NCBI GenBank assembly: GCA_963827205.1
Contig: CAWHAH010000002.1
Coordinates: 194,433 to 258,432, forward strand
DNA: 64,000 nucleotides
DNA from: an uncultured Verrucomicrobiae bacterium
Lineage (GTDB): Bacteria; Verrucomicrobiota; Verrucomicrobiia; Limisphaerales; UBA11358
Direction of reading: 5' to 3'
Position numbers and translations under genes: made by a program. Below the pieces are notes generated by a model, which saw only the letters and a list, made by a program, of their open reading frames with translations, was not told the DNA's origin and did not search any database. This document shows positions 6,548-46,010 of the stretch, piece after piece; the first letter of the stretch is position 1; the number at the start of each line of letters is the position of its first letter.

Positions 6548-6553
6548 GCGCAG

Positions 6554-8293: not shown

Positions 8294-8296
8294 GGC

Positions 8297-31067: not shown

Positions 31068-31078
31068 GGGGTTGAGCA

Positions 31079-31094: not shown

Positions 31095-31192
31095 ATCGGT
31101 GCAAAACCGTTGTTGCCCGTTGAAAACCCGCCATTTCGCACAAACTGCGGCATGGTTAAGCGTGCAAGACCCCACGATTTCCCCGACTGACC

Positions 31193-31204
31193 GTGGCAAA
31201 ATGC
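31193..31204. promoter_or_regulatory. candidate enhancer (UAS) site GTGGCAAAATGC, inside palindrome TGGCA-N3-TGCCA
   Basis: Exact 12-mer shared with 32949..32960, in the same orientation and at a similar distance relative to each sigma-54 promoter candidate. Confidence 0.45.
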
Positions 31205-31230
31205 CATTGCGAACCCGGCCCCGATGGCGG

Positions 31231-32586
31231 ATGATGGAATGGCGGATTCGCCTCCGCGCCCAAATGCAGGAAACGCTTCATAACCAGTTGCTCGATTCGG
31301 TGCCCGACGGTGTGTTCACCGTGGACGCCGATTGGCGCGTCACCTTTTTCAATCGCGCCGCCGAGCAGATCACCGGCATCCGCCAGCAAGAGGCGCTGGG
31401 CCGGCGCTGTTGTGGTGTGTTCCGCGCCTCCATCTGCGAAACCGCCTGCGCGTTGAAGCAAACGCTGGCCACCCGCCGGCCCGTGGCCAACAAGGTCGTC
31501 TATATTGTGAACGCGCGGGGCGAGCGCATCCCGATCAGCATCTCCACCGCCGCACTCACGGATGCGCGCGGCAAAACCATCGGCGGCGTGGAGAGTTTCC
31601 GCGACCTGCGATTGGTGAACGAACTGCGCCACGAAGCCGAGCAACAGGATTCGTTTTCGGACATCATCGGGCGCAGCGCAGCGATGCGGCAATTGTTTGA
31701 TCTGCTGCCGCCCGTGGCCGAGAGCGACAGCACGGTGCTCGTGGAAGGCCCCAGCGGCACGGGCAAGGAACTGTTTGCCCGGGCCATCCATCAGCTTTCG
31801 CGTCGGCACGCGAAGAAGTTCATCGCTCTCAACTGTGGCGCGCTGCCGGACACCTTGCTGGAAAGCGAATTGTTCGGCTACAAAGCCGGCGCGTTCACTG
31901 ACGCACGCAAGGACAAACCTGGCCGCTTCGCGCTGGCCGAGGGCGGAACCATCTTTCTGGACGAAATCGGCGACATCTCGCCGGCCATGCAAACACGGTT
32001 GTTACGCGTATTGCAGGAGCGCGTTTATGAACCGCTCGGCGGCGTGGAAACCCTGCGCTGCAACGTGCGGGTGATCGCCGCATCGAACAAGCCGCTCCAG
32101 GAGCTGGTGAAGGAGGGAAAGTTTCGTGAAGACCTGTTTTATCGCGTGCATGTGGTCCGGCTGGAACTGCCGCCGCTGCGCGAGCGCCGCGAGGATATCC
32201 CCCTGTTGGTTGACCACTTCGTAGCACGATACAACCGCCTCAAGGGACGGGACGTTGCCGGTGTGTCCGATGCCGCCCTCGCGCGGCTGATGGAACATGA
32301 TTTTCCCGGCAATATTCGCGAACTGGAGAACATCATCGAACACGCCTTCGTGCTCTGTCGCAGCGGCCTGATTGAGTTGTCGCACCTGCCGCCGCATCTG
32401 CGCGGCGCGGAAGACGAAGTCCGCTCCGGGCTGCCGTCCGGCCTGACGCTGGTGGCGATGGAAAAGCTGCTCATCCGCGACGCATTGCGGCGGCACGAAG
32501 GAAATCGTGCCGCTGCCGCCCGCGAACTGGGCATTGACGTGAGCACGCTGTTTCGGAAAATCAAGGCGCTGAAATTAAAAGGCTGA
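31231..32586 (+). CDS. sigma-54-dependent Fis-family transcriptional activator with N-terminal PAS domain
   Basis: PAS (VPDGVFTVDADWRVTFFNRAAEQITG), AAA+ Walker A GPSGTGKE, GAFTDA loop, C-terminal HTH AAARELGIDVSTLFRKI. Start is ambiguous (31201, 31231 or 31264). Confidence 0.85.
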   Translation: MMEWRIRLRAQMQETLHNQLLDSVPDGVFTVDADWRVTFFNRAAEQITGIRQQEALGRRCCGVFRASICETACALKQTLATRRPVANKVVYIVNARGERIPISISTAALTDARGKTIGGVESFRDLRLVNELRHEAEQQDSFSDIIGRSAAMRQLFDLLPPVAESDSTVLVEGPSGTGKELFARAIHQLSRRHAKKFIALNCGALPDTLLESELFGYKAGAFTDARKDKPGRFALAEGGTIFLDEIGDISPAMQTRLLRVLQERVYEPLGGVETLRCNVRVIAASNKPLQELVKEGKFREDLFYRVHVVRLELPPLRERREDIPLLVDHFVARYNRLKGRDVAGVSDAALARLMEHDFPGNIRELENIIEHAFVLCRSGLIELSHLPPHLRGAEDEVRSGLPSGLTLVAMEKLLIRDALRRHEGNRAAAARELGIDVSTLFRKIKALKLKG

Positions 32587-32613
32587 AAGCCCAAAAGATG
32601 ATAACATAGAACC

Positions 32614-32889
32614 ATGCTGAACGAGCACGACCAGGATCTTCTTCTGCGTTGCCGCCGCCTCGGCCACGAGGTGACTTTCGGCTATTGCCCGCGAGAAACA
32701 GGCGGAAAGCCCTGCCGCCTGATTCTGGACTGCTGGTGGGAACAATTTGACGTGCGCTCCTTCCTGCAGGCGCATCTGTCGAAGGAGGACATGGCCCAAG
32801 TCGAGCGCCGCCAGCGCCTCTCCCCCTCCCAGCAAGATGTTGAGCCTGGTGGAGATAATCCAGCAGGCAAAGGATCGGCTGAAGCGTAA
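32614..32889 (+). CDS. small Cys-containing hypothetical protein
   Basis: 91-aa ORF 27 nt after the activator stop; Cys pattern C-x12-C-x9-C-x6-C followed by WW; no family recognised. Confidence 0.45.
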   Translation: MLNEHDQDLLLRCRRLGHEVTFGYCPRETGGKPCRLILDCWWEQFDVRSFLQAHLSKEDMAQVERRQRLSPSQQDVEPGGDNPAGKGSAEA

Positions 32890-32948
32890 ACCATGACACT
32901 CCCCCCGGCGGTGACGCAGATTGCGCTGGATCGCTCCCGTTACCCGTT

Positions 32949-32960
32949 GCATTTTGCCAC
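32949..32960. promoter_or_regulatory. candidate enhancer (UAS) site GCATTTTGCCAC
   Basis: Exact reverse complement of 31193..31204; ~120 nt upstream of the predicted start of the 33049 promoter candidate. Confidence 0.45.
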
Positions 32961-33048
32961 TAAGCACACTCTCTCTGCTTGGATCAATAATTACAGTCCC
33001 CCCTGATTTCAAAGGAAATTTCGATTTGTCTGCCAGCCAATTGGGGGC

Positions 33049-33064
33049 TGGCATGAATCCCGCA
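33049..33064 (+). promoter_or_regulatory. candidate sigma-54 promoter (TGGCAT-N5-CCGCA) for the NifX-like/def/radical-SAM operon
   Basis: GG-N10-GC spacing is correct but the -12 box is weak, and the predicted start falls within 1-2 nt of GTG 33076. Overlaps palindrome TGCCAGCC-N7-GGCTGGCA. Confidence 0.4.
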
Positions 33065-33075
33065 CTACGGCAAGT

Positions 33076-33504
33076 GTGCTGATTGCCATTCCCGTTTTGC
33101 AGGAACGCATTTCGCCGGTGCTCGACGCTGCGGCGCGGTTGCTTTTGGTTACCCACCGGCGCGGGAAGGAAGTGGCGCGGCGCGAATTTGTTCTTGGTCC
33201 GCTTACGCCGGAAGGACTGGCGCGGAGCGTAGCGGAATTGCGCGTGGATGTGCTGCTCTGCGCCGCACTGTCCAAACAGTTGCTGCGGGCTTTGGAACGG
33301 CGCGGCGTGCGGGTCAAACCGCATCTCTGCGGCGAGGTGGAGTCGGTCTTGCGCGCCTTCGACTGCGGCCATCTCCAGCGGGATGAATTCCGCATGCCGG
33401 GCTGCTGGGGACAACATTCGCACGGCAAATACTGCCGTCATCAGCGTGTTGCTCAGAACGGTAAGCCCAGTGGGAAAGAAACACGAACCCAAATTTCGGC
33501 ATGA
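33076..33504 (+). CDS. NifB/NifX-family (dinitrogenase FeMo-cofactor-binding fold) protein 1
   Basis: 142-aa ORF, GTG start. The (M)LIAIPV N-terminus and VDVLLCAALS match the family; Cys/His-rich C-terminus. Confidence 0.7.
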   Translation: MLIAIPVLQERISPVLDAAARLLLVTHRRGKEVARREFVLGPLTPEGLARSVAELRVDVLLCAALSKQLLRALERRGVRVKPHLCGEVESVLRAFDCGHLQRDEFRMPGCWGQHSHGKYCRHQRVAQNGKPSGKETRTQISA

Positions 33505-33707
33505 CAGCATCACCATCAAATCATCGGCCTGCTGGAAAGCGCAAGGTTCGCAGCGGCAAACGCCACCGGTTCCAAATCACCGGATTGCCCGGCTGGAAAC
33601 GCGCGCAACTGGGTGGGCCCGCGTTTGGCGAAGCAAACTGCAATCTTCCTCCGAAATCACGGAACGCCGAACTCCGGCCCGGCGCGAATGTGTCCGTTGA
33701 ACCATGA
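33501..33707 (+). CDS. small basic hypothetical protein (68 aa)
   Basis: ATGA overlaps with both neighbours (33501-33504 and 33704-33707) argue for translation; pI clearly basic (K/R-rich). Confidence 0.5.
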   Translation: MTASPSNHRPAGKRKVRSGKRHRFQITGLPGWKRAQLGGPAFGEANCNLPPKSRNAELRPGANVSVEP

Positions 33708-34306
33708 ACTCGCCCCAGCCCAACCTCACTTCCAAAGCGGACCCGCCGTCCGAAGGCCGCATATCCCGGCACCGGCTGCATCCGTTGACCCTTGTGCATT
33801 ACCCGGACCCGATGTTGCGGAAGGAGTGCGTGCCGGTGGAACGGTTCGACAGCACGCTGCGGGACATCGCGGACGAGATGACTGCGCTAATGCAGTCCCA
33901 TTCCGGAATCGGCCTGGCCGCGCCGCAGGTTGGACTCGAACAACGGCTGCTGGTGTGCGGCATCGAAACCCAGCTCATTGCCCTGGCCAACGTGCAGATT
34001 CAAGAAGGCACCCAGACGGGGGAATTCGTGGAAGGCTGTCTAAGCCTGCCCGGCATCAAGGTCAACGTCTGGCGTCCGGAGCGCATCCGCGTGAGCGGTT
34101 ATGACGTTCAGGGGCACCGGAGGAGCTTCGCCGCAACCGGCCTGTGGGCGCGGGTGATTCAACACGAACTGGATCACTTGAACGGCGTGCTGATTTGTGA
34201 TTATGGGCATCCGTTGGCCGAAGGCTGCGGGGAATGCCCGCTCACGTTGCCAGCGGTGCTGTTGGAAGAGCGCAAGCACCGGTCACGCCCCTCCCGTTCA
34301 CATTAA
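33704..34306 (+). CDS. def: peptide deformylase paralog with N- and Cys-containing C-terminal extensions
   Basis: All three catalytic motifs are present: GIGLAAPQ, EGCLS, QHELDH. Confidence 0.85.
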   Translation: MNSPQPNLTSKADPPSEGRISRHRLHPLTLVHYPDPMLRKECVPVERFDSTLRDIADEMTALMQSHSGIGLAAPQVGLEQRLLVCGIETQLIALANVQIQEGTQTGEFVEGCLSLPGIKVNVWRPERIRVSGYDVQGHRRSFAATGLWARVIQHELDHLNGVLICDYGHPLAEGCGECPLTLPAVLLEERKHRSRPSRSH

Positions 34307-34316
34307 CGCAACTGCT

Positions 34317-34961
34317 ATGACCAATTCACAAATCGAGAGCCGCCGAAACCATCGCTTGATGAAACAGCGCGAGGCGTTGTTCCGACGCTTCGGCTACGAT
34401 TCGGTGGCAAGCCGCAAGTTCGTTCTTAAGAAAGTCATGCCGTTGCCTGGGCACGTGCTCGAAATCGGCACCGGCAAAGGCCGCTTTCTCGCCGTGCTGG
34501 CGAAGCACGCGGATCGTATCACGACGTTGGACGCGGACGCGAAACAGCAACGCGCGGCAAAGCTGCACATCCGTCAGACGCGGGCTGGCCACCGGATTCG
34601 ATTTATCGTCCATGATGCCGAACATCTGCCTTGGCCTGACGCCAGTTTCGACACCGTGGTCACTGTGAACACTTTTCATCATCTGGCGCGCCCGATGCGG
34701 GTGTTCAAGGAGATGTTGCGGGTGTTAAAGCCGGGCGGGAAACTTGTCTTGAGCGATTTTTCTCCGCGCGGCTTTCAAATTTTCGACAGGATTCACCAAT
34801 TTGAAGGCGGAACGCATCCCCGCCTGAAAAATGGTTTGGCTGGGTTCGCGCACCGGCTTGGCCGGCCCGGCTGGAAAACCAGACGATTTAAAGGATGCAA
34901 TCAAGAGATTCTGGTGGCGACGGCGCCACCCGTCCCAACGAAAGGCAAAAAGCACACATGA
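34317..34961 (+). CDS. class I SAM-dependent methyltransferase (Methyltransf_11 type)
   Basis: 214 aa from ATG 34317; VLEIGTGKGRF motif I and LKPGGKLVLSDF. Confidence 0.8.
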   Translation: MTNSQIESRRNHRLMKQREALFRRFGYDSVASRKFVLKKVMPLPGHVLEIGTGKGRFLAVLAKHADRITTLDADAKQQRAAKLHIRQTRAGHRIRFIVHDAEHLPWPDASFDTVVTVNTFHHLARPMRVFKEMLRVLKPGGKLVLSDFSPRGFQIFDRIHQFEGGTHPRLKNGLAGFAHRLGRPGWKTRRFKGCNQEILVATAPPVPTKGKKHT

Positions 34962-35395
34962 TTACCATCGCAATTCCCTCAGCCGAAGGCCGGCTTCACG
35001 GACACTTTGGCGGCTGCCGGGAATTCACGCTCGTGCAAGCGGACCCCGAGCACCGAACAATTGTCAGCATCCGGCCAGTGACACCGCCGCCGCACGCGCC
35101 GGGACTTTTCCCGCGCTGGCTGCGCGAGCAGGGCGCGAACGTTATTATTGTGGGTGGCATTGGCCAGCGTGCGCTGGCCATCTTCGCCCAGGAAGGCATC
35201 GAGGTTCGCGCCGGACTTCCAGACGCGCCGGTGGAACAGTTGGCAACCGCTTATTTGAACGGCCAGTTGACCGCGACGCCGGAAGGCTGCGAACACCACG
35301 GCCATCGGCACGACCATGAGCATGGTCATCATCACCATCGCGAGCATGATCACGACCATGAAGGTTGTGACCACGGAGCCGAAACGGGGCATTGA
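34958..35395 (+). CDS. NifB/NifX-family protein 2 with His-rich C-terminal tail
   Basis: MITIAIPSAEGRLHGHFGGC and ANVIIVGGIGQRA match the family; tail EGCEHHGHRHDHEHGHHHHREHDHDHEGCDHG; ATGA overlap with the upstream gene. Confidence 0.8.
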   Translation: MITIAIPSAEGRLHGHFGGCREFTLVQADPEHRTIVSIRPVTPPPHAPGLFPRWLREQGANVIIVGGIGQRALAIFAQEGIEVRAGLPDAPVEQLATAYLNGQLTATPEGCEHHGHRHDHEHGHHHHREHDHDHEGCDHGAETGH

Positions 35396-35398
35396 GCG

Positions 35399-36292
35399 AT
35401 GAAAAGCGCCTTGGATTGCCTGCCTTGTTTCGTGTCGCAAGGACTGAACGTCGCGCGCATGGCGACTTCGGACCCGCGCGTTCAGGAACAGATTCTGCGC
35501 GAAGTGCTGCGCCGCGCCAGTCAGTCGGATTTGGCCAAGTCGCCGCCGCTGTTTGGCCGGAGCCTTCACCAGTGGGTGCGCGAGCTTGCGGGCCAGGCAG
35601 ATCCGTATTTGGCCGTCAAACAGGAATCAAACCGGCTCGCGCTGGCGCTGTTGCCCGCCTGGCGCGAGCGGCTGCGGACGGCGGAAAACCCGCGCCAGAC
35701 CGCCGTGAAAATGGCCATTGCCAGCAACGTCATTGACTATGGCATCAAGGGCGATCTTACGGCGGAAATAATTCCCGCTGCGCTGGAAAGGTCTTTTGCC
35801 GGGCCGTTCATGGGCGACGTGGACGGATTTTTCGCGGCGGCGGAGCGCGCGACCGAGATTCTTTTTCTGGCGGACAACGCGGGGGAACTGGTCTTTGACC
35901 GGCTACTCCTCGAATTGCTGCCGCGCGAAAAAATCACCGTCGTGGTCAAAGGCGGCCCGGCCATCAACGACGCCTTGCGCGCGGACGCCACGGTGGCCGG
36001 CCTCGACGGCTGGGTGGCGGTGACGGACACCGGCTGCGACGGCGCGGGCATTGAGCTGGCAGCGTGCAGCCCGGAGTTTCAGCGGCGGTTTGCGCGGGCC
36101 GATCTGATCATCGCCAAGGGACAGGCGAATTTCGAGTCGCTGGACGGCTGTGGGCAAAACATTTTTTTCATGTTCAAGGTCAAGTGTTCCGTCGTGGCCC
36201 GGCATATCGGCCACGCGGTCGGGAGCCTGGTCTTGCACCGCAATGTTCCCGAGGCGGCGGAACTGGTCCTCGCCAAAACAACAAAAGCTTGA
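35399..36292 (+). CDS. DUF89-family protein (damage-control phosphatase ARMT1-like)
   Basis: 297-aa ORF; CLPCF N-terminus, LADNAGELVFD metal motif, IAKGQANFESL. Confidence 0.8.
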   Translation: MKSALDCLPCFVSQGLNVARMATSDPRVQEQILREVLRRASQSDLAKSPPLFGRSLHQWVRELAGQADPYLAVKQESNRLALALLPAWRERLRTAENPRQTAVKMAIASNVIDYGIKGDLTAEIIPAALERSFAGPFMGDVDGFFAAAERATEILFLADNAGELVFDRLLLELLPREKITVVVKGGPAINDALRADATVAGLDGWVAVTDTGCDGAGIELAACSPEFQRRFARADLIIAKGQANFESLDGCGQNIFFMFKVKCSVVARHIGHAVGSLVLHRNVPEAAELVLAKTTKA

Positions 36293-36318
36293 GCCATAAA
36301 CAGGCAACGAATGACACC

Positions 36319-36729
36319 ATGAAAAAGAATCAACCAACAAATGCTGCCTCTACTACCGACGGCCTGAATCTCGTCGCCCAAGCATGGGAGAACCGCGAAG
36401 GACCGGCGGTATTCGCGACCGTGGACGCGGCGAAAACGCCCAACGCCATTTACGTCGGCGAAATCCGCCACGTTCCCGGCGAAGGGTTCATTGTGGCGGA
36501 CAATTATTTCTGCAAAACCCGCGCCAACATCAAGAGCGGGACAAAAGGCGCCGTTTTGTTGCTGACGAAGGACCGGAAGTCGTTTCAGGTGAAAGGTCCG
36601 CTGACCTATCACACTCAAGGCCCCGTCTTCGATAACATGCGGTCTTGGCATCATTCGAAACTTCCAGGCGCGGCGGCGACGCTCCTGCGGGTTGAAGAGG
36701 TTTACAGCGGCGCAGAAAAATTGTATTGA
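36319..36729 (+). CDS. pyridoxamine 5-phosphate oxidase-like FMN-binding split-barrel protein
   Basis: 136 aa from ATG 36319; pattern AVFATVDAAKTPNAIYV...FCKTRANIKSGTKGAVLL fits the PNPOx-like fold (by eye). Confidence 0.6.
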   Translation: MKKNQPTNAASTTDGLNLVAQAWENREGPAVFATVDAAKTPNAIYVGEIRHVPGEGFIVADNYFCKTRANIKSGTKGAVLLLTKDRKSFQVKGPLTYHTQGPVFDNMRSWHHSKLPGAAATLLRVEEVYSGAEKLY

Positions 36730-37742
36730 TGCATTCGACATCCCAACCGCGCGGCCATGTTTTCGGCCCGGTGCCCTCCCGCCGCCTCGGGCGTTCGCTG
36801 GGCGTGGACCTGGTGCCGCTCAAGACCTGCACCTTCGATTGTATTTACTGCCAGTTGGGCCGTACGACGAAAAAAACCGTTGAACGCAAGGAATGGACGC
36901 CGACGAACGCGGTGCTGGATGAGTTGAAACGCAAGCTCGCCTGCCGGCCGGACTACATCACCTTAAGCGGCTCGGGTGAACCGACACTGCACTCGGGCCT
37001 CGGCGACATCATCGAGCATATCCAGGCCTTGACGGACGTGCCGGTGGCGGTATTGACAAACGGGTCGCTGCTGTGGCAGCCGCAGGTGCGCGCCGAACTG
37101 GCCCTGGCCGACGTGGTTCTGCCCTCGCTCGATGCCGGCGATGCCTTCAAATTCGAGTTCATCAACCGGCCGCACGCCAGTCTTTCGTTTGACCAGGTGG
37201 TCGGGGGCTTGGTCGCGTTCCGACGCGAATTCCCGGGGCAGTATTGGCTGGAAGTGTTCCTCTTGGCGGGTTGCACAGCCATCCTCGCCGACGTGGATCG
37301 CATCGCCGCGTTGGTCAAAAAAATCAGGCCTGACCGCGTGCAACTGAACACCGTCGCGCGTCCGCCAGCGGAGGAATTTGCCCTGAGCGTGGCGCCGGCG
37401 GAACTGGCCCGTTGGGCGCGCCGGTTCTCTCCTCGCGCCGAAGTGGTGGCCGAGCGGCCCTCGCGGCTGGCCCACAAGTCGCGGACGCTGGACGCGCGCA
37501 CCGTGCTCGACCTGCTATTGCGGCGTCCCTGCACCGCCGAGGACATCGCGCGGGGCTTGGGCGCGAACCGGCTGGAGATTCTCAAGCGGCTGGAGGCGCT
37601 CGTTGCGCGAGGCGCACTCGAAATATCCCGCCATGAAGGTGAAATTTATTATCGCGCCAGTGCGATCCCATCCGGTCATCCACCGGAGGGTTCATTCCGC
37701 TGCTCGAAGAAACGAACAACCAAACAAAAGAATCATGAATAA
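36729..37742 (+). CDS. radical SAM protein (COG0731-like) with C-terminal winged-helix-like region
   Basis: GPVPSRRLGRSLGVDL then CTFDCIYC (CxxxCxxC); its ATG shares one nt with the upstream TGA. Confidence 0.85.
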   Translation: MHSTSQPRGHVFGPVPSRRLGRSLGVDLVPLKTCTFDCIYCQLGRTTKKTVERKEWTPTNAVLDELKRKLACRPDYITLSGSGEPTLHSGLGDIIEHIQALTDVPVAVLTNGSLLWQPQVRAELALADVVLPSLDAGDAFKFEFINRPHASLSFDQVVGGLVAFRREFPGQYWLEVFLLAGCTAILADVDRIAALVKKIRPDRVQLNTVARPPAEEFALSVAPAELARWARRFSPRAEVVAERPSRLAHKSRTLDARTVLDLLLRRPCTAEDIARGLGANRLEILKRLEALVARGALEISRHEGEIYYRASAIPSGHPPEGSFRCSKKRTTKQKNHE

Positions 37743-38154
37743 AGACAAATTGATCCAAGGATTAAACCAAGATCTCGCTGCCGAACTCGGCACCGTCATC
37801 CGTTACACCTATCAAGCCGCTAAATGCTACGGCCTGTTGGCGGCGGAATTGCGCGAACTGCTGGCGAAGGAAGCACAGGACGAACTGGGCCATGCCGCCT
37901 TTCTGATGGACGTCATTCAAGACCTGGGCGGCGAACCTGCCACCACGCCAAAGCCGTTCGAGAAGCCCGCCGACCTCAAAGGAATGCTCGAACTGGACGT
38001 GAAGATGGAGGCGGAGGACGTGGCCAACTATCTGGCGCACGCCAAACTGGCGGAACAGCTCAACCTTCCCGAACTCAAGATGAAGCTGGAAGAGATGGCC
38101 GCCGACGAGGCGGGTCATGGCCGCGAGCTGCGCCGACTCGTGAAAGGACTCTAA
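37735..38154 (+). CDS. ferritin-like (bacterioferritin/Dps-fold) di-iron protein
   Basis: 139 aa from ATG 37735; two ExxH motifs (QDELGHA, ADEAGHG); 8-nt overlap with the radical SAM gene. Confidence 0.7.
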   Translation: MNKDKLIQGLNQDLAAELGTVIRYTYQAAKCYGLLAAELRELLAKEAQDELGHAAFLMDVIQDLGGEPATTPKPFEKPADLKGMLELDVKMEAEDVANYLAHAKLAEQLNLPELKMKLEEMAADEAGHGRELRRLVKGL

Positions 38155-38158
38155 AGAC

Positions 38159-38686
38159 ATGAACAGTGGAGACAAACCTCTAGCCGGCCAGCGCATTGGC
38201 ATGTTCGGCCGCGGTGAACACAGCGACACCCTCCGGCAGAAAGACTATTTCAAGAAAAACAGGTTTGACCGCGACCTGCTCGCCCAACTGCCGCCGGGCA
38301 ACTTCACCGTCGCCGTGCGCGGCGCTCCGGTGCTCAATGGCGCCACGCTGGCGGACGCCGAGTGGGCGGGTTTGGCCGGGTTTTGCGAGATCATCACCAA
38401 CGGCTCGGACGCGCCGGGCACGCTGCTCGGAGATTGTTCACCGGAATTTCGCGCGCGGTTTGCGGCGGCGGACGTGGTCATTGCCAAGGGCCAGGTGAAT
38501 TACGAATCGCTGGCCGGCGTCAACCAGAACATTTTCTTTCTGCTCAAGGTCAAATGCCCGGTAATCGCGGAGCGGTTGCAATGTCCGGTTGGTGGCCTTG
38601 TGTTACACCATTTATTGCCGACCACGCTGCTCGAAGAAAAGAAACGCCGGGCACAGGATTCAGGTTCAAAGAAAGGCAAGTTTTGA
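38159..38686 (+). CDS. truncated DUF89 paralog (C-terminal half only) with an unrelated 38-aa N-terminus
   Basis: Residues ~39-150 align by eye with the C-half of 35399..36292 (CSPEF.RRFA.AD..IAKGQ.N.ESL....QNIFF..KVKC.V). The N-terminus includes the 66-bp repeat. May be a pseudogene. Confidence 0.5.
   Translation: MNSGDKPLAGQRIGMFGRGEHSDTLRQKDYFKKNRFDRDLLAQLPPGNFTVAVRGAPVLNGATLADAEWAGLAGFCEIITNGSDAPGTLLGDCSPEFRARFAAADVVIAKGQVNYESLAGVNQNIFFLLKVKCPVIAERLQCPVGGLVLHHLLPTTLLEEKKRRAQDSGSKKGKF
38207..38272 (+). repeat. 66-bp direct repeat, copy 1
   Basis: ggccgcggtgaacacagcgacaccctccggcagaaagactatttcaagaaaaacaggtttgaccgc; 64/66 identical to 40990..41055. Confidence 0.9.
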
Positions 38687-38732
38687 TGACCAACTCATTC
38701 TCCATTTCGGTCAAAAAAGGAAAACACAAACT

Positions 38733-40448
38733 ATGAAGCCCACTCGCATTCTCATCATCGGCGGCGTGGCCGCCGGCGCCAAGGCAGCGGCCCGCGCCCG
38801 ACGCCGCGACCCGCACGCGGACATCACCCTCGTCGAACGGGGACGGCTGTTGTCCTACGCCGGTTGCGGCATGCCCTATTATATCCAAGGCCAAGTCCAC
38901 GATTTTCACGAACTCATGTCCACGCCCGTGGGCGTGATCCGCGACGGGACGTTCTTCCAGAACGTGAAAGCCATCCGCGTGCTCAACCAGACGCTCGCGG
39001 AGAAGATTGATCGCGCCGGCAAAACGCTCAACACCGTCAATGTTGCCACCGGCGAAAAGACCGATCTGCCCTACGACAAACTCGTGCTGGCCACGGGCGG
39101 CATTCCGGTCGAACCGCGCATGGAAGGCGCGGACCTCAATCGCGTGTTTCGCCTGAATTCGCCCGACGACGCGCTGGCGATTCGCGAGGCCACCGAGCAT
39201 GGCAATGTCAAACGGGCCGTGCTGATCGGCGGCGGGTTGATCGGTTTGGAAACCGCCGAGGCGTTTGTCGCCCGCGGCATTCAAGTCACCATCGTCGAGA
39301 TGTTGGACCAATTGCTGCCTGCCTTGCTGGACTGGGAAGTGGCGGCGTTCCTGGAAAAGTATCTGCGCGGACGCGGCCTTGACATCCGGCTCGGCCAGAA
39401 GGTTACGCGGCTGGAAGGCGATGCGGACGGCAACGTCGCGCGCGTGCAGGCCACGGCCGGCACAATCGAGGCGCAAATGGTGTTGATCGCCATCGGCGTC
39501 CGCCCGAACGTCCAGCTCGCCAAAGACGCCGGTCTGGCCCTCGGCACGACTGGCGCGATTGCCGTCAACGACCAGCTTCAGACGAGCGACCCGGACATTT
39601 ACGCTGGCGGCGACTGCGTGGAATGCACGCATTTGCTCACCGGGCAGAAGGTGTTCGTGCCGCTCGGCTCGACGGCCAACAAACATGGCCACGTCATCGG
39701 CGACAATATCACCGGCGGCCAGTCCCGTTTCCCCGGCATCCTCGGCACGACGGTGTTCAAGGTGCTCGATTACAATCTCGCGCGCACCGGCCTGACCGAA
39801 AAGCAAGCGCGTCAACTGGGTTACAATGCGCTGACCGCGCTGGTGCCTGGCCCCGACCGCGCCCACTACTATCCGACGGCGGCCACCTTGCTGGTGAAAC
39901 TTGTCGCCGACGCCGCCAACGGACGCTTGCTAGGTGCGCAGGCTCTTGGCCCCGGCGACGCGGTGAAACGCATTGATGTGTTGGCGACCGCGCTGACGTT
40001 CGGCGCAACGATTGATCACTTGCCGGACTTGGACCTCGGCTACGCCCCGCCATATTCGTCGGCCGTTGACCCGCTGGCTCATGCCGCCAACGTGTTGCGC
40101 AACAAACGCGACGGCTTGGCCAAGGCGCTCACGCCGCAAGAACTGAAAGCCAAACTCGACACTAACGCTCCCGTCGTGCTGCTGGATGTGCGCACGCCGC
40201 CGGAGCGCGACCAGGGGCAACTGCGCGACCCGCGCGTGGTCTGGATTCCGCTGGGCCAGTTGCGAAACCGGCTGGCCGAACTGCCGCGCGACAGGGAGAT
40301 CGTCTGTTTCTGCAAAGTCAGCCAGCGCGGTTACGAAGCGCAGCGGGTGCTGGATGGCGAAGGATTTGCCAACGCCAAGTTTCTCGATGGCGGCCTGGTC
40401 GCATGGCCGTATCCGCTTCAAGCCGGCAACCACAAAGAAAGGCAGTGA
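38733..40448 (+). CDS. CoA-disulfide reductase-type FAD oxidoreductase fused to a C-terminal rhodanese domain (persulfide-reductase type)
   Basis: 571 aa from ATG 38733. GGVAAGAKAA FAD motif, single active Cys in SYAGCGMPY, second Rossmann GGGLIGLE, rhodanese loop CKVSQR. Confidence 0.85.
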   Translation: MKPTRILIIGGVAAGAKAAARARRRDPHADITLVERGRLLSYAGCGMPYYIQGQVHDFHELMSTPVGVIRDGTFFQNVKAIRVLNQTLAEKIDRAGKTLNTVNVATGEKTDLPYDKLVLATGGIPVEPRMEGADLNRVFRLNSPDDALAIREATEHGNVKRAVLIGGGLIGLETAEAFVARGIQVTIVEMLDQLLPALLDWEVAAFLEKYLRGRGLDIRLGQKVTRLEGDADGNVARVQATAGTIEAQMVLIAIGVRPNVQLAKDAGLALGTTGAIAVNDQLQTSDPDIYAGGDCVECTHLLTGQKVFVPLGSTANKHGHVIGDNITGGQSRFPGILGTTVFKVLDYNLARTGLTEKQARQLGYNALTALVPGPDRAHYYPTAATLLVKLVADAANGRLLGAQALGPGDAVKRIDVLATALTFGATIDHLPDLDLGYAPPYSSAVDPLAHAANVLRNKRDGLAKALTPQELKAKLDTNAPVVLLDVRTPPERDQGQLRDPRVVWIPLGQLRNRLAELPRDREIVCFCKVSQRGYEAQRVLDGEGFANAKFLDGGLVAWPYPLQAGNHKERQ

Positions 40449-40451
40449 GTT

Positions 40452-40913
40452 ATGGGAGAATACAGCCTCTCTACACTCGTGGAATTGCCCTTCGAGCGGG
40501 CACTCCGCGAAACGCGCCAGGCATTGGAACAGGAAGGTTTCGTCCTCATCACTGAAATTGATCTACAAGCGCAGTTGGCGGTGAAATTGAACCGGCAGAT
40601 TCGTCCCTACACCATCCTGGGCGTGTGGGTGCCCGCGTGGGAATACGAGGCATTGAGTCGCGAACCGGACATCGGGCTGCTCATGCCCAGCCACGTCTGC
40701 CTGTGGGACAACGGAGATGGCACTTGCACGTTGGCCACCGCCGACCTCAAACACCTGTGCCACACGGAAAAGAACCCGCCTCTGGCCGAAGCCGCCCGCG
40801 CCGTCAACGCCCGGCTGCGGGCAGTCGTGGCTTCGGTGCAGTTTGCCCGGACGACGGACACGCCCCAGCCGTCTTCGCCCGCTGAACGTTCGGACACCGA
40901 ATACAACAAATGA
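40452..40913 (+). CDS. DUF302-domain protein
   Basis: 153-aa ORF; FVLITEIDLQA...YTILGVW...LLMPSHVCLW matches the DUF302 pattern. Confidence 0.75.
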   Translation: MGEYSLSTLVELPFERALRETRQALEQEGFVLITEIDLQAQLAVKLNRQIRPYTILGVWVPAWEYEALSREPDIGLLMPSHVCLWDNGDGTCTLATADLKHLCHTEKNPPLAEAARAVNARLRAVVASVQFARTTDTPQPSSPAERSDTEYNK

Positions 40914-41128
40914 AACTGAAATTCACACCCATCGGTCTGATTCATTCGCCGCATCGTCAGGCGGAAGGCACCCCGATTCAACCGCGCTGGGCGGCGGTGA
41001 GCACAGCGACACCCTCCGGCAGAAAGACTATTTCAAGAAAAACAGGTTTGACCGCATCCCCGCTCTGTTTGAGGAATGAATTCTTTGACCACGGTATAAC
41101 CCATCGAAGCGCCGTGGCTCAGCAATAA
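40910..41128 (+). pseudogene. TrmO/TsaA N-terminal fragment (about 28 codons) truncated at the 66-bp repeat
   Basis: MKLKFTPIGLIHSPHRQAEGTPIQPRWAA compares with the intact paralog MKLELTPIGLIHSPHHQAAGTPIQPPWAA (42283). Homology ends where repeat copy 2 begins. Confidence 0.65.
40990..41055 (+). repeat. 66-bp direct repeat, copy 2
   Basis: ggcggcggtgagcacagcgacaccctccggcagaaagactatttcaagaaaaacaggtttgaccgc. Confidence 0.9.
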
Positions 41129-41141
41129 AAGGCACGTGCTT

Positions 41142-41552
41142 ATGAATAACGTGATTGAAATCCCGGGCGCGCAGTTTGAGCTTGAAATGCGAACTGCGAC
41201 GCAGCCTGTGTTGGTGCATTTCTACACTTCGTCGTCAGGTCAATGTCGCATTCTGGCTCAGTCACTGGAAACGCTCGCCAGCGAGCTTGCCGGCGGACTG
41301 AGCATTCGCCAGGCAAACCTGGATGACCACGCTGAACTGGCGCGGCGTTACAGCATCACTGATGTTTCGACGTTGATTCTGTTCGACAACGGCGCGCCGA
41401 TCGCGTGCTTTGCCGGGTCAATCTGTCCACGCGAGCTAAAGGCGCATTTGCATGGCCTGCTTGCGGACTATGCGCCGCCGCGCGGGAGGGGGCAGCGGCA
41501 CCTGGGACGCGCGGCCCCGCAATTAACAGATGACGCGGCCAGAACCGGCTGA
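41142..41552 (+). CDS. thioredoxin-fold protein with monothiol SxxC site
   Basis: VLVHFYTSSSGQCRIL replaces the WCGPC motif; the rest (ITDVSTLILFDNG) is Trx-like. Confidence 0.6.
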   Translation: MNNVIEIPGAQFELEMRTATQPVLVHFYTSSSGQCRILAQSLETLASELAGGLSIRQANLDDHAELARRYSITDVSTLILFDNGAPIACFAGSICPRELKAHLHGLLADYAPPRGRGQRHLGRAAPQLTDDAARTG

Positions 41553-41580
41553 CGCTGCTTGAGCAACTGAAGGTGCATCT

Positions 41581-42276
41581 ATGAAAGTGATTGGACTGAT
41601 TGGCGGAATGAGTTGGGAATCTACGGTCGAATACTACCGCCTGATGAACGAATCCGTGAAAGAGAAGCTGGGTGGGCTGCATTCTGTCAAGTGCGTTCTT
41701 TACTCGGTTGACTTTGCCGAAGTGGAGGGGTTGCAACGCCGGGGGCAGTGGGCGAAGGCGGCTCAACTCCTGGTGGACGCCGCCCAAAACGTGGAGAGAG
41801 CCGGTGCTGACCTGGCGCTCATTTGCACCAACACGATGCATAAGCTGGCCGACACGGTTCAAGCCGCCATCGGTATTCCCCTGTTGCACATCGCCGACGC
41901 CACAGCGGAAAAGGTCAAGCAGGCTGGAATTCAGCGAGTCGGGTTGCTGGGCACTCGATTCACGATGGAAGAAGATTTCTACCGGGGCCGCTTGACCGAT
42001 CAATTTGGTTTGGAAGTGGTGATTCCCGACCCCGAGGACCGGGAAACGGTGCATCGCATCATTTACGAGGAACTCTGCGTCGGCACGATCCGGCCCGAGT
42101 CGAAAGCGCGGGTTGCCGGCATCATGAGCCGACTGGTTGAGATGGGCGCCCAAGGAATCATCCTGGGATGCACGGAACTGGGTCTGCTACTCGATGCCCA
42201 GGACAGCCGCGTGCCGCTCTTTGACACGACGCGCGTGCATGCGATGGCCGCCGTGGAACTCGCGTTCAAATCATAG
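41581..42276 (+). CDS. aspartate/glutamate-family racemase (aspartate racemase type)
   Basis: 231-aa ORF; IGLIGGMSWEST, CTNTMH and GCTELG catalytic Cys motifs. Confidence 0.85.
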   Translation: MKVIGLIGGMSWESTVEYYRLMNESVKEKLGGLHSVKCVLYSVDFAEVEGLQRRGQWAKAAQLLVDAAQNVERAGADLALICTNTMHKLADTVQAAIGIPLLHIADATAEKVKQAGIQRVGLLGTRFTMEEDFYRGRLTDQFGLEVVIPDPEDRETVHRIIYEELCVGTIRPESKARVAGIMSRLVEMGAQGIILGCTELGLLLDAQDSRVPLFDTTRVHAMAAVELAFKS

Positions 42277-42282
42277 TCACCC

Positions 42283-42777
42283 ATGAAGCTCGAACTCACA
42301 CCCATTGGTCTGATCCACTCGCCGCATCATCAGGCAGCAGGCACGCCGATCCAACCGCCATGGGCGGCAGGCATCGAAGGCACGGTGGTTTTACTCCCTG
42401 AATTCGCGCCGGGCTTGCGCGACCTCGCCGGCTTTGACCGCGTCTGGTTGATCTACTGGTTCGACCGGGCGCGCGCGGCGCAACTTGAAGTCGTCCCCTA
42501 CCTCGACACGCAGACACGCGGAGTCTTTGCCACGCGCGCCCCGAGCCGGCCCAATCCCATCGGGCTTTCCTGCGTGCGGCTCTTGGCCGTCGAAGGGTTG
42601 CTGCTCCGCGTGGCGGATCTGGACGTGCTGGACGGCACGCCGCTGTTGGACATCAAGCCTTACGTGCCGGATTTCGACATGTTTCTGACCGAACGGATTG
42701 GATGGTATGCCCGCGCTCGCGGAACGCGGATCGCCGACGGACGCTTCGCGAAAGGTGCAAAGAACCAATCAACATGA
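42283..42777 (+). CDS. trmO: tRNA m6t6A37 methyltransferase TrmO (TsaA/YaeB family)
   Basis: 164-aa ORF; PIGLIHSP, FATRAPSRPNPIG and DGTPLLDIKPY signatures. Confidence 0.85.
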   Translation: MKLELTPIGLIHSPHHQAAGTPIQPPWAAGIEGTVVLLPEFAPGLRDLAGFDRVWLIYWFDRARAAQLEVVPYLDTQTRGVFATRAPSRPNPIGLSCVRLLAVEGLLLRVADLDVLDGTPLLDIKPYVPDFDMFLTERIGWYARARGTRIADGRFAKGAKNQST

Positions 42778-43010
42778 GCACCCGGAAAGCATCCTCATTC
42801 GACAAGGCCCTGGCCAGGGTCTGCGCGAACTGCCCAGTCGGCCGGCGCGCCCGAAAGCGGCAACTCGGCCTCGCCTTCTGGCTGGTGAAGCACGTCGAAG
42901 CCAGGCTGTGCCCCTTCTGCCGCGCATACGAACGGGTCTATGGACGCCCGGCACACGAGGCGTCAACAAGTCATCAATCATCCCCGCAGGCCAAAACTCC
43001 AACACCATGA
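42774..43010 (+). CDS. small Cys4 (CxxC...CxxC) hypothetical protein
   Basis: 78 aa; ATGA overlaps with trmO (42774-42777) and psd (43007-43010); CANC...CPFC. Confidence 0.5.
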   Translation: MSTRKASSFDKALARVCANCPVGRRARKRQLGLAFWLVKHVEARLCPFCRAYERVYGRPAHEASTSHQSSPQAKTPTP

Positions 43011-43738
43011 AAGAAAACTCCAAAGCCTTGGCGGCGGGGCGGCGCATCGTTGGGCGCGCGCTGGGGTGGCTGCTGATCTGGCTCGCCGGCGCAGGTCTGG
43101 CGTTATGGTTGAAGTCGTCGTTTATCGCCGTCGCACTGGCAGTTGCCGGCATGTGGATTCTGTTTTCAGCGTTCACGTTTTACTTCTTCCGCGATCCGGA
43201 ACCGCGCGTGCCCATCGCCCCGGAAGCAGTGATTGCTCCGGCGCATGGTTTGGTGGATTGCCTGGACGAAACGACGGAGCCGGAGTTTCTGAACGGCCCA
43301 TGCCGCCGGATTTCGATTTTTCTCTCGGTATTGGACGTGCATGTGCAAAACGCGCCTGTGGCCGGCAAAATTGTCTTTGTCAAACATCGTCCCGGCCGGT
43401 TTCTGAGTGCTCTGAAAACCGAGTCGGCAGAATTTAACGAGAGCGTGCTTATTGGGATTGAATCGCTCGAACAGCCCGGCGAGCGAATGGCCGTGCGCCA
43501 GATTGCCGGCGTGATTGCCCGGCGGATTGTGTCCTGGGTTGGCGTTGGCGACACGGTCGCGCGCGGCCAAAGGCTGGGATTGATTCAATTCGGCTCGCGC
43601 TGCGATTTATATCTTCCGTTGACCGCGCGAATCCAGGTCAAGCGGGGCGACCGTGTGGTCGGTGGTGAAACTGTGGTGGCCACGTGCGGCGGCGCAAAGG
43701 CCCTCTCAACCGACCCGACGCTTCTTTGCGATTTCTGA
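43007..43738 (+). CDS. psd: phosphatidylserine decarboxylase-family proenzyme (short, membrane-anchored type)
   Basis: 243 aa from ATG 43007; two TM helices, FFRDPEP, self-cleavage-type FGSR motif. Confidence 0.75.
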   Translation: MKENSKALAAGRRIVGRALGWLLIWLAGAGLALWLKSSFIAVALAVAGMWILFSAFTFYFFRDPEPRVPIAPEAVIAPAHGLVDCLDETTEPEFLNGPCRRISIFLSVLDVHVQNAPVAGKIVFVKHRPGRFLSALKTESAEFNESVLIGIESLEQPGERMAVRQIAGVIARRIVSWVGVGDTVARGQRLGLIQFGSRCDLYLPLTARIQVKRGDRVVGGETVVATCGGAKALSTDPTLLCDF

Positions 43739-43745
43739 CACTCCT

Positions 43746-44129
43746 ATGACTTCCCCAAATACGCTCATCGAAGTCACCGACAGTTCATTTGATGAACAGG
43801 TCATTCAATCCAAGACACCGGTTTTCCTGGCGTTTTGCGCCGACGGCTGTCCCGCCAGCCAAAGGCTTTTGGCGATGTTGGCGAGTGCGGTTCCGCGTTG
43901 CCGTGGCTTGGTAACATTTGCGAAAGCCAGCCCCGCCAAAGCTCCCGGACTGGGCGCCCAACTCGGTGTCGCGTCAGCCCCCAGCCTCCTGTTATTGCGT
44001 GGTGGCGCAGTCAGTTTCCAATTTGTCGGCGATTTGTCCCCGCGCGAGTTGGACGATTTGCTGGCTCACGCCGCTGGAGAAAATTTCATGAACCATAACC
44101 ATGCTATAACTGCCAAGCCATGCTCCTGA
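43746..44129 (+). CDS. thioredoxin-fold protein with atypical CxxxC site
   Basis: PVFLAFCADGCPAS replaces WCGPC; C-terminal LLLLRGG..FVG is Trx-like. Confidence 0.55.
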   Translation: MTSPNTLIEVTDSSFDEQVIQSKTPVFLAFCADGCPASQRLLAMLASAVPRCRGLVTFAKASPAKAPGLGAQLGVASAPSLLLLRGGAVSFQFVGDLSPRELDDLLAHAAGENFMNHNHAITAKPCS

Positions 44130-44542
44130 AAATTGCCATCCCGGTGCTCGATGGCCAGTTGCTCAGCCATTTGGGGGAAACCAGACATTTCGCGTTGGTG
44201 GACGCGGATTCCGGAAACCGCGTCATGTTCCGCACGCAAATCGTCGCCGCGCCGCCGCACGAACCGGGTTCGTTCCCGCGCTGGTTGCGCGAACAGGGCG
44301 TTCAAGTTCTCATTGCCGCCCGCAACGGCAGTGGCCAGCGCGCGCTCGACAATTTGGTTCATCACGGCATTGAGGTGCGCGCCGGGCGGCCCGGTTTGCC
44401 GGTTGCAGCACTCGTGGTCGCCTGTTTGGCAGGACAGTTGCCTCCGATACGGGAAGGCTGCGATCACCGGCACGATTCAACCGCCGGGAAGCACGAGTGC
44501 CAACTCGCCGGCTACTTGAAGGGACAAACGTCCGTTCGCTGA
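44120..44542 (+). CDS. NifB/NifX-family protein 3
   Basis: MLLKIAIPVLDGQL...FPRWLREQGVQVLIA parallels protein 2 (FPRWLREQGANVIIV). Confidence 0.75.
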   Translation: MLLKIAIPVLDGQLLSHLGETRHFALVDADSGNRVMFRTQIVAAPPHEPGSFPRWLREQGVQVLIAARNGSGQRALDNLVHHGIEVRAGRPGLPVAALVVACLAGQLPPIREGCDHRHDSTAGKHECQLAGYLKGQTSVR

Positions 44543-44626
44543 ACCCGCCGCTATGAGATTCGTCAGCGCTATTTTGGTTGGCTTGCCACCGGTGAAAACA
44601 GTCGGCGAGCCGGCATGGGACAGATT

Positions 44627-45427
44627 ATGAGCATGAATTTGAGCGCCTGCGAGTTGTTGGAAAAGGTGCGCCGGGTCAGCCCAGTGGTGCATCACTTGAC
44701 CAACTGGGTGACGATTTACGATTGCGCCCAAATCGTTAAAACCCTTGGCGCGTCACCCATCATGGCCCATGCGCCGGAGGAAGCAGCCGAGATGGCCGGG
44801 ATTGCCTCGGCACTCGTGCTCAATATAGGGACGTTGACCGTCGGCATGGTGGAAGCGATGAAGCTGGCAGCGGCCCGCGCGAATCAGAAGGGCATCCCGG
44901 TGGTTCTGGACGTGTGCGGCGCGGGCGCCACGGAATTCCGCGACCGCAAGGCGTTTGAGCTGCTGGATCAGGCCAAAATCAACATCATCAAGGGAAACAC
45001 TTCCGAAATTGCCCGCGTCAGCGGAGCCAAAATCCGAACCAAAGGCGTTGATGCCACTGAAGTCACGGCGGATTTGGAGACGCTGGCTCAAGCACTTGCC
45101 GTTCGCCGCCAAACCACGGTAGTGATCACGGGCCAAGTGGACATTGTGGCCGATGAGCAAGGAATTTATCGCGTCAAAAACGGGGATGCACTGATGACGC
45201 GCGTCGTTGGCACGGGCTGCATGGCCACGTCCATCATCGGCGCTTTCGCCGCCGTTGAGCCTGATTGCAGCAAAGCCGCCGCCTGCGGTTTGGCCTGTTA
45301 CGGGATTGCGGCTGAACTGGCCGCGAAAAAATCGCGCGGCCCGGCGTCATTCAAAGCCGCGTTGTTTGACTGCCTCTACAACCTTGACCCGCCAACCATC
45401 GAAAGGATGCAGCGCATCGAATCATGA
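44627..45427 (+). CDS. thiM: hydroxyethylthiazole kinase
   Basis: VHHLTNWVT, GASPIMA, NIGTL and VVGTGC motifs; ATG 44615 is an alternative start. Confidence 0.85.
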   Translation: MSMNLSACELLEKVRRVSPVVHHLTNWVTIYDCAQIVKTLGASPIMAHAPEEAAEMAGIASALVLNIGTLTVGMVEAMKLAAARANQKGIPVVLDVCGAGATEFRDRKAFELLDQAKINIIKGNTSEIARVSGAKIRTKGVDATEVTADLETLAQALAVRRQTTVVITGQVDIVADEQGIYRVKNGDALMTRVVGTGCMATSIIGAFAAVEPDCSKAAACGLACYGIAAELAAKKSRGPASFKAALFDCLYNLDPPTIERMQRIES

Positions 45428-45915
45428 AGGAGGTATCCGCATTGACCAGCCATTTGCGAGAGCAGATGTGCAAAGTCACTGGCCCGCGTCTGGCGATTCT
45501 GAAAATTCTGCGGCAACATCCGCATCCGCTCGCAAACCGGGACATTCTCTGCCTTCTGCCCAAGGGTCTGTGCGACTTGGCTACGATTTACCGCACGTTG
45601 CATCTGCTGGAGAGAATGGGCATGGTGAAGCGGTTTGATTTCAGTGATGGCGTGGCGCGGTATGAATTGCTGGGCGAGGGCGACGACGGTCATCATCATC
45701 ACCTGGTTTGCACGCACTGCGGCAAGGTGGTTAGAATTGAAGAATGTTTCGTGCGGGAAATGGAAGCCCGTATTGCCGCCGCCAGCGGTTTCGCCGCCGT
45801 GACGCACAAGTTGGAATTTTTCGGGCTATGTCCGCGTTGCCAACTGAAATGGCCGTCATGCCGAAAAGACGTAAGAGGTGAGAAAAACGCTTGCGCGAGA
45901 ATTAGCCAGGACTGA
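45424..45915 (+). CDS. Fur-family metalloregulator (Fur/Zur/PerR; subtype not resolvable)
   Basis: 163-aa ORF; wHTH TIYRTLHLLERMGMV, HHHHLVCTHCG and CPRC Zn site; ATGA overlap with thiM. Confidence 0.85.
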   Translation: MKEVSALTSHLREQMCKVTGPRLAILKILRQHPHPLANRDILCLLPKGLCDLATIYRTLHLLERMGMVKRFDFSDGVARYELLGEGDDGHHHHLVCTHCGKVVRIEECFVREMEARIAAASGFAAVTHKLEFFGLCPRCQLKWPSCRKDVRGEKNACARISQD

Positions 45916-45971
45916 AAACCCTGGCACTTATCCCGGCCGACACATTCCGTAGCCGACTAAAGGGCCATCTT

Positions 45972-45999
45972 GTAACTTTTCCCACCCACGGGGCTCAAT
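45972..45999 (+). promoter_or_regulatory. ECF-type promoter P1 (GTAACTT-N13-GGCTCAAT)
   Basis: 11 nt upstream of ATG 46011; same boxes and spacing as the other four sites. Confidence 0.6.
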
Positions 46000-46010
46000 T
46001 AAGACATAAC

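Follow-up and report, generated by a model that had tools for sequence, protein, structure and literature searches.

A 66-bp direct repeat in an uncultured Verrucomicrobiae bacterium as a possible scar of a microhomology-mediated rearrangement

A 66-bp direct repeat was analysed in a 64,000-nt stretch of DNA (64 kb, called the window from here on) from an uncultured Verrucomicrobiae bacterium (GenBank assembly GCA_963827205.1, contig CAWHAH010000002.1). Comparison with related loci indicates that the downstream copy of this repeat (copy 2) belongs to the region upstream of a thioredoxin gene (Trx1), and that the upstream copy (copy 1) links a P-loop ATPase gene, of which the first codons are left, to what remains of a DUF89 gene, its C-terminal half. 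We give about even credence to the reading that one microhomology-mediated rearrangement, namely a deletion bridged by templated filler through two template switches, left the repeat as its scar. It is established which copy is the original, what all four flanks are, that microhomology exists at both new junctions and that relatives possess the parts intact; the single event with two template switches, and the exact content that was deleted, are what we infer from these observations.

The repeat pair and the identity of its flanks

The two copies (38207-38272 and 40990-41055; the copies and the genes and gene remnants described in this section lie on the plus strand) agree at 64 of 66 bases, as a previous sequence-only reading of this DNA had stated, with mismatches only at repeat positions 4 and 12 and none in the final 54 nt. 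When up to three mismatches were allowed, the 54-mer and an internal 21-mer of the repeat each occurred twice in the window, which confirms two copies there, and neither was matched in 100 shuffles. The related loci and contigs used for comparison carry L-numbers; L001-L008 are from the same species, and L010, L011 and L078-L090 are among the relatives. All eight same-species contigs, drawn from at least six assemblies, carry the two copies and the same two mismatches, and over the common region they match the window at 98.5-100% identity. Some of these contigs reach at least 160 kb, and those of 160, 59 and 45 kb span both copies. An assembly artefact, that is, a chimeric or collapsed join, was the error against which the earlier reading had itself warned, and it deserved consideration for an uncultured organism whose structure was judged from assembled contigs; given the recurrence of structure and mismatches in eight other contigs, its probability is practically negligible.

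Copy 2 is in its native place, as the 5' edge of a non-coding region of about 135-150 nt that is conserved upstream of Trx1 (41142-41552; identified by Pfam and by its homologs and their contexts), and this upstream region supplied the repeat. The outgroup locus L084 is colinear with window positions 40910-42918 at 81.5% DNA identity and shows the order TrmO' (the first 28 codons of a TrmO gene), repeat, spacer, Trx1, aspartate racemase and full TrmO. Upstream of TrmO' it carries a different gene, and a search there for the DUF302 gene that precedes TrmO' in the window gave no match. In L082, L083 and L085 the repeat, from about position 17, and the spacer are found directly upstream of Trx1, and what they are joined to is not TrmO' but the initial 43 codons of a NifX-like gene. 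The colinearity of L084 and the location upstream of Trx1 in the other three loci indicate that the junctions of copy 2 with TrmO' and with the spacer are old, and that copy 2 is native. Moreover, the two copies have three derived bases in common (positions 16, 30 and 36) against all three outgroups, showing that copy 1 was copied from copy 2 within the lineage of the window itself. On these comparisons we take copy 1 as the derived copy and copy 2 as its template.

The rest of the conserved region, from copy 2 to the Trx1 start codon (41056-41141), is a spacer of 86 nt. From repeat position 18 or so to the Trx1 ATG, mean column identity is 84% across four lineages, in all of which the repeat keeps a fixed distance from the start codon. 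A 2-nt indel within the repeat-spacer region of L082, and an amino-acid identity no greater than expected from neutral drift, show that it behaves as a conserved non-coding upstream region. The stretch of about 135 nt at 41006-41141 is conserved as well as the adjoining genes in the four lineages. Concerning its function, the Trx1 upstream region gave no Rfam match (E up to 1), no sigma-70 consensus match in a scan for promoters and terminators, and neither covariation nor a detectable conserved structure when the alignment was folded; a sigma-54 -24/-12 motif, sought by eye in the spacer, was not found in convincing form. Conservation is what suggests a regulatory role, as promoter, operator or leader. 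A blastn-short search with the repeat core and spacer against the window and an early set of related loci, which did not include L082-L085, returned only chance 11-14-mers.

The left partner of copy 1, to which the sequence-only reading had given no identity, is a truncated P-loop ATPase gene. The 57 nt preceding and entering copy 1 correspond to the first 19 codons (38159-38216, MNSGDKPLAGQRIGMFGRG) of a roughly 300-aa gene of the CbiA/ParA type, cut within the Walker A motif GRGGSGKST. Intact homologs of 297-330 aa were identified by tblastn and inspection of open reading frames (ORFs) in metagenome-assembled genomes (MAGs) of Verrucomicrobiia (L010, L011, L086 and L090); the N-terminus of the L010 protein reads MKNTEKSLAGQRIGVFGRGGSGKST, the other three are alike, and those of L086 and L090 have Pfam CbiA/ParA matches. 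A search across the window for further remnants of the gene brought up nothing beyond codons 1-19. In copy 1, repeat positions 1-10 (38207-38216, GGCCGCGGTG; GGC CGC GGT G) double as ATPase codons 17-20. The remnant begins 4 nt after a ferritin-like gene (37735-38154; Pfam), and the same 4-nt gap separates ferritin from the intact ATPase in L090. The idea that the repeat core itself is decayed ATPase sequence, with AGCACA resembling the K-S-T codons, was dropped, since L084, L082 and L085 show this core to be Trx1-upstream DNA.

On the right side, copy 1 runs into the C-terminal half of a DUF89/ARMT1 gene, which starts at the VFDR codons (38267-38686) and covers Pfam profile positions 189-309 of 311. 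This half had been recognised earlier, together with an intact paralog (35399-36292, profile positions 4-310), and both assignments are borne out. The truncated protein is 74-79% identical in amino acids to the full-length DUF89 proteins of L009, L078, L088 and L090 (81% in nucleotides for L009). The full-length relatives read DNAGE-I-V-F-D-R-D-L-L-A-Q-L-P, encoded from the isoleucine as ATC GTG TTC GAC CGC GAC CTG CTC GCC CAA CTG, and the window agrees with them from GAC CGC onward. As the source of the truncated copy the intact paralog was ruled out, because it belongs to a different clade and is only 41-47% identical in amino acids to the full-length genes of the DUF89C type (L078, L082, L086, L088 and L090). 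Its VFDR codons read GTC TTT GAC CGG, so that the string tttgaccg does occur at the equivalent FDR site, as had been proposed.

Both new junctions show microhomology, in agreement with what had been suggested for the DUF89 side. At the left junction the ATPase gene natively reads TTC GGN CGC GGT GGN and the native repeat TGG GCG GCG GTG AGC (the same in L084); the product changes over inside GCGGTG, within a microhomology string GGC[C/G]GCGGTG. A switch at this place accounts for the mismatch at position 4, with C coming from the ATPase and G from TrmO'. At the right junction AGG TTT GAC CGC is the end of the native repeat and G TTC GAC CGC the reading of the DUF89 relatives; the TTT of the repeat is kept, which places the switch inside GACCGC, within the string GTT[T/C]GACCGC, and repeat positions 57-66 (GTTTGACCGC) overlap the VFDR codons. 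The microhomology therefore comprises, at each junction, 6 perfect bases and 9 of 10 overall, native to both parents. Between the two switch points lies the templated filler, repeat positions 11-60 (38217-38266), identical at 49 of 50 bases to copy 2, 2.7 kb downstream.

Relatives were also compared for the two hexamers. GCGGTG is present in the ATPase homologs of L010 and L090 and in the L084 repeat, and L011 has GCGGCG. GACCGC is found in the repeats of the window and of L085, with GGCCGC in L084 and AGCCGC in L082. At the position of the right junction all six DUF89 relatives read GT(G/C)/TTG TTC GA(C/T) CG(C/T) GA(C/T), and exact GACCGC occurs in five. Among the relatives compared, the arrangement of truncated ATPase, repeat and truncated DUF89 exists in this species only, and by the comparisons above only the two junctions flanking copy 1 are new.

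The fusion forms an in-frame chimeric ORF of 175 aa (38159-38686), in which the repeat encodes a linker between the 19-aa ATPase N-terminus and the DUF89 C-terminal half. This ORF is encoded in all of L001-L008, exactly or as a 97%-identical allele, with zero single-nucleotide polymorphisms (SNPs) in its DUF89 part among strains. In all full-length relatives, and in PDB entries 2g8l and 2ffj, the motif DNAGE stands directly upstream of the breakpoint; it is absent from the chimeric ORF. An Asp-Asn pair is the metal-binding and nucleophile pair of DUF89 enzymes (PMC9062747), and the DN of DNAGE is presumably this pair. With the motif lost, DUF89 phosphatase activity is unlikely, and the 175-aa product, which lacks a full ARMT1/DUF89 domain with its Asp-Asn pair, is probably not an active DUF89 enzyme. 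This ORF, and a 72-aa ORF at 40910, are rearrangement products and should not be annotated as normal genes.

The segment between the copies contains, as had been described and as Pfam bears out, a gene for an intact CoA-disulfide-reductase-like flavoprotein with a C-terminal rhodanese domain (CoADR-rhodanese; 38733-40448), 77-90% identical in amino acids to homologs in Verrucomicrobiia MAGs, and a DUF302 gene (40452-40913). The stop codon of the latter overlaps the ATG of TrmO', and an overlap of the same type between DUF302 and TrmO is found in L086. TrmO' itself (40910-40999) is what an old truncation, also present in L084, has left of a TrmO paralog, namely its first 28-30 codons. Positions 40910-40995 align with the initial 86 nt of the intact TrmO gene (42283-42777; Pfam) at 84% identity; the fragment comprises 28 codons and is then out of frame with the repeat. 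The earlier observation of about 28 TrmO codons before copy 2, with an intact gene at 42283, was thus correct, and its deduction that the repeat event is much younger than the duplications of the paralogs is supported.

Two side observations concern the genes next to copy 2. TrmO' (40910-40997) is 92.5% identical to the 5' end of the full-length TrmO of L084 (1747-1813) and 89.8% to the TrmO of strain L006 (10895-10982), but just 84% to the TrmO of its own genome (42283-42370), which suggests allele exchange or gene conversion between TrmO' and full-length TrmO genes. Between Trx1 and the aspartate racemase, L082, L085 and L086 have a gene for an MFS/TLC-like transporter of about 445 aa, and neither the window nor L084 has one. 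The Trx1 protein of the window has 136 aa, with a C-terminal tail of about 20 aa that is not found in its 116-aa homologs. The missing transporter and the tail suggest that another deletion scar may exist here, at 41487-41576.

A possible course of events and its alternatives

If the repeat arose in a single event, the ancestral order would have been approximately ferritin, P-loop ATPase, perhaps a radical-SAM gene, DUF89, CoADR-rhodanese, DUF302, TrmO', repeat and Trx1. A row of this kind is partly seen in L090, where a ferritin gene (87% identical in amino acids to that of the window) is followed 4 nt later by the intact ATPase, a radical-SAM gene and a full DUF89 gene of the truncated type. 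A nascent DNA end in the Walker A codons of the ATPase, ending in GCGGTG, would have left its template and re-annealed to GCGGTG at the boundary of TrmO' and repeat, several kb downstream. About 50 nt of the segment upstream of Trx1 would then have been copied; the end would have left again at GACCGC and re-annealed 2.7 kb back upstream, where the VFDR codons of DUF89 contain GACCGC, and normal synthesis would have resumed in DUF89. The net loss would run from ATPase codon 20 through about DUF89 codon 166. The 50-nt filler bridging this deletion would have doubled the Trx1-upstream segment as a direct repeat, with the C-terminal half of DUF89, CoADR, DUF302 and TrmO' between its two copies, leaving the ATPase and DUF89 parts in frame by chance as the 175-aa ORF, and the deletion would have brought CoADR and DUF302 directly behind the radical-SAM and ferritin genes.

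The features expected of templated filler are present: a near-identical template nearby, microhomology native to each switch point, and an ancestral template combined with a novel junction. We also counted in favour of a rearrangement scar that the same repeat takes part in a further microhomology junction, between NifX-like codon 43 and repeat position 17 or so in L082, L083 and L085. Likewise counted was a tract with about 15% divergence between strains, which stops within 15 nt of the ATPase/repeat junction; such an end is expected if the donor lineages were homologous only up to that junction.

Some observations weigh against the single event. At position 12, inside the filler, copy 1 has A where copy 2 and L084 have G, which requires either that the base was miscopied or that a point mutation followed. 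No genome was found with the exact pre-event order (ATPase through DUF89 and CoADR), nor one without copy 1, so that the deleted content has to be deduced. In the relatives sampled DUF89 adjoins TrmO, NifX or aspartate racemase and never CoADR; the adjacency of DUF89 and CoADR, sought in about 15 related loci, was found in none of them and is documented in this species only. The copy number of the repeat rests on the 64-kb window and the L-loci, not on the whole genome of the species. Finally, one event with two switches and two successive events would leave an identical end sequence.

Such a succession of two microhomology events is a lesser but real possibility. A 2.78-kb tandem duplication, with a unit of DUF89 C-terminal half, CoADR, DUF302, TrmO' and repeat, would have been joined at GTT[T/C]GACCGC, and a deletion from ATPase codon 19 to the TrmO'/repeat boundary of the first unit would then have been joined at GGC[C/G]GCGGTG. 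This course would lead to the four flanks and the two microhomologies just as the single event does. It can also appeal to the old TrmO'/repeat junction, readable from the gene orders of L085 and L086 as a tandem-duplication junction whose unit ran from the repeat through Trx1 and DUF302 to the TrmO 5' end, and to independent microhomology deletions at this locus in L082 and L085. On the other hand, it needs two rare events, with an unstable 2.78-kb duplication lasting until the second, and a doublet intermediate with two full units is seen in none of the nine same-species sequences. Under either course the feature is an ordinary scar of a known kind, and the footprint of a duplication/deletion cycle, one of the options listed in the sequence-only reading, was essentially the right one. 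That reading had also offered a captured cassette and a small element targeting or carrying gene ends, and neither is supported. In the former, a 2.8-kb cassette or circle would have integrated, by Campbell-type recombination at the repeat or by insertion with a long target duplication, into a small ORF composed of the ATPase 5' end, the repeat and a terminal IPALFEE before the stop. Removal of the DNA between the copies does restore an in-frame ORF of 45 aa, and a segment flanked by direct repeats is a classic signature of integration. Nevertheless, this explanation is very improbable, since the junctions were not made together: TrmO'/copy 2 and copy 2/Trx1-upstream are ancestral in L084, where the former stands in the chromosomal Trx1 context with no DUF302 or CoADR upstream. 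In addition, the repeat-spacer region is non-coding, as indicated by the L082 indel and the drift-level amino-acid identity, a protein search with the reconstructed 45-aa ORF returned no candidates, and the segment has no recombinase. As for an empty site (truncated ATPase, repeat and spacer contiguous), none was found in relatives; in L084 it is TrmO', repeat and spacer that are contiguous.

It is scarcely credible that the 66-mer marks the terminus of some small element, mobile or repeated, such as a miniature inverted-repeat transposable element (MITE), a repetitive extragenic palindrome (REP), an attC-like site or the end of an insertion sequence (IS), that inserts into genes or carries gene ends. 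Truncated genes do stand beside both copies, three different genes abut the repeat in different lineages (TrmO', NifX-like and ATPase), and IS elements are active in sister strains. Yet only two copies exist in 64 kb, in relatives the sequence is always upstream of Trx1 at its fixed distance from the start codon, in four lineages, and copy 1 passes at either end into a host gene through microhomology. The DNA fold of the repeat is no better than that of shuffles (z-scores -1.05 and 0.41), so no stable or attC-like hairpin is predicted; a repeat search found no inverted-repeat pair between or inside the two copies and no terminal inverted repeat. An exact 24-mer and a conserved 40-nt degenerate pattern had 0 matches among JGI (Joint Genome Institute) metagenome contigs, a collection which evidently lacks the JGI contigs known from the protein look-ups, and a 21-mer of the repeat had 0 matches among viral contigs. 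The window contains no transposase homolog or IS, and the repeat shows no similarity to the IS ends of sister strain L001. The remark that no recombinase lies nearby holds for the window itself, but not for the sister strains, which carry IS copies close by.

A further proposal, that the 5' edge of the Trx1 upstream region is a recurrent breakpoint or template-switch hotspot, appears rather improbable to us. Its first 20 nt or so contain three independent junctions, namely TrmO' at positions 5-10 approximately, NifX-like at about 17-24 in L082, L083 and L085, and the copying out of copy 1, and a tightly bound regulator or another replication barrier at this region could stall forks. More plainly, deletions may be tolerated as far as the edge of a promoter or leader that the cell needs, but not inside it.

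Strain variation and the surrounding genes

Sister strains carry two direct copies of an IS of about 2 kb (in L001 at 6424-8474 and 13024-13309), encoding a 603-aa DDE_Tnp_1 transposase and having the terminal inverted repeat CCGAAATTTCATGGATG. In window coordinates they are inserted at about 36836, in the CxxxCxxC region of the radical-SAM gene, and at 41181/41182, in codon 13 of Trx1. The pair brackets a 4.4-kb block comprising the truncated radical-SAM gene, ferritin, the chimeric ORF, CoADR, DUF302, TrmO' and the repeat, a composite-transposon-like arrangement in sister strains; three contigs (L002-L004) are only 4.5 kb long as a consequence of this IS-bounded block. Nearby IS elements were rejected as the cause of the repeat, since their boundaries are elsewhere and none is present in the window.

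The divergent tract corresponds to positions 37865-38201, where the window and the L001-type strains differ from L005-L008 by about 50 SNPs in 337 nt (about 15%) against a background of 0.5-1%; it takes in the 3' half of the ferritin gene and the ATPase remnant. It looks like recombination with a donor homologous only up to the ATPase/repeat junction. Within the same species the radical-SAM gene also has two alleles, about 75% identical in DNA (36825-37669 against L001 8469-9514) and flanked by sequence that is 100% and 99.5% identical, which points to a mosaic, recombinant locus. In L082 (4587-4760), L083 (563-610) and L085 (1324-1500), the first 43 codons of the NifX-like gene (34958-35085 in the window) meet repeat position 17 or so (41006) via GACACC, and this junction removes about 6 kb that the window retains in between.

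More generally, the gene set of about 30400-46000 recurs in Verrucomicrobiia MAGs (L010-L015, L045, L078, L086 and L090) in nearly every order, often beside a PAS/sigma-54 activator. It includes NifX-like, DUF89, PNPOx-like, radical SAM, ferritin, P-loop ATPase, CoADR-rhodanese, DUF302, TrmO, thioredoxins, phosphatidylserine (PS) decarboxylase and aspartate racemase. These genes are likely to be functionally linked although their order is very fluid. The NifX-like (Nitro_FeMo-Co) protein at 34958-35395 has a His/Asp-rich C-terminal tail (HHGHRHDHEHGHHHHREHDHDHEGCDHG), suggesting metal binding, and its paralog at 44120-44542 has no such tail. The picture is that of a redox/metal gene neighbourhood in which deletions and duplications at short homology, together with IS insertions, are reshuffling the genes.

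Comparison with known systems

After this analysis the feature no longer counts as a candidate for a new mobile element or cassette, and it offers what may be a clean natural example, polarised by outgroups, of a deletion bridged by templated filler in an uncultured Verrucomicrobium. The long-distance template-switch model was reportedly first put forward for the junctions of lac amplifications in E. coli. Our case resembles fork stalling and template switching or microhomology-mediated break-induced replication (FoSTeS/MMBIR) in its short microhomology at the breakpoints (6 perfect bases, 9 of 10), in a filler of about 50 nt taken from a template a few kb away, and in the involvement of neither long homology nor a recombinase. 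It differs in that it would be a natural event, fixed in an uncultured organism and read from comparative sequence only. A mechanism for templated insertions has been described (PMC8421209, PMC5120786), and template switching has been discussed as a source of bacterial duplications (bioRxiv 10.64898/2026.05.22.727201).

The direct repeat around a gene block is also what RecA-independent tandem duplication followed by deletion would give, through MMEJ (microhomology-mediated end joining) or alternative end joining. In bacterial MMEJ the microhomology is 5-25 bp long (bioRxiv 10.64898/2026.05.22.727201, citing Chayot et al. 2010), and the junctions found here are within this range; unlike that scheme, no tandem doublet is seen, and the remainder of a second copy amounts to just 66 bp. 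The one-event and two-event models are both RecA-independent, short-homology processes of known kinds. With Campbell integration, integron cassettes and composite transposons our feature has in common a direct repeat around a few cassette-like genes, but one copy of the repeat and both its flanks are ancestral, and no attC-like structure, integrase or IS is present at the repeat. The IS-bounded 4.4-kb block of the sister strains, in turn, has other boundaries (36836 and 41181) than the repeat.

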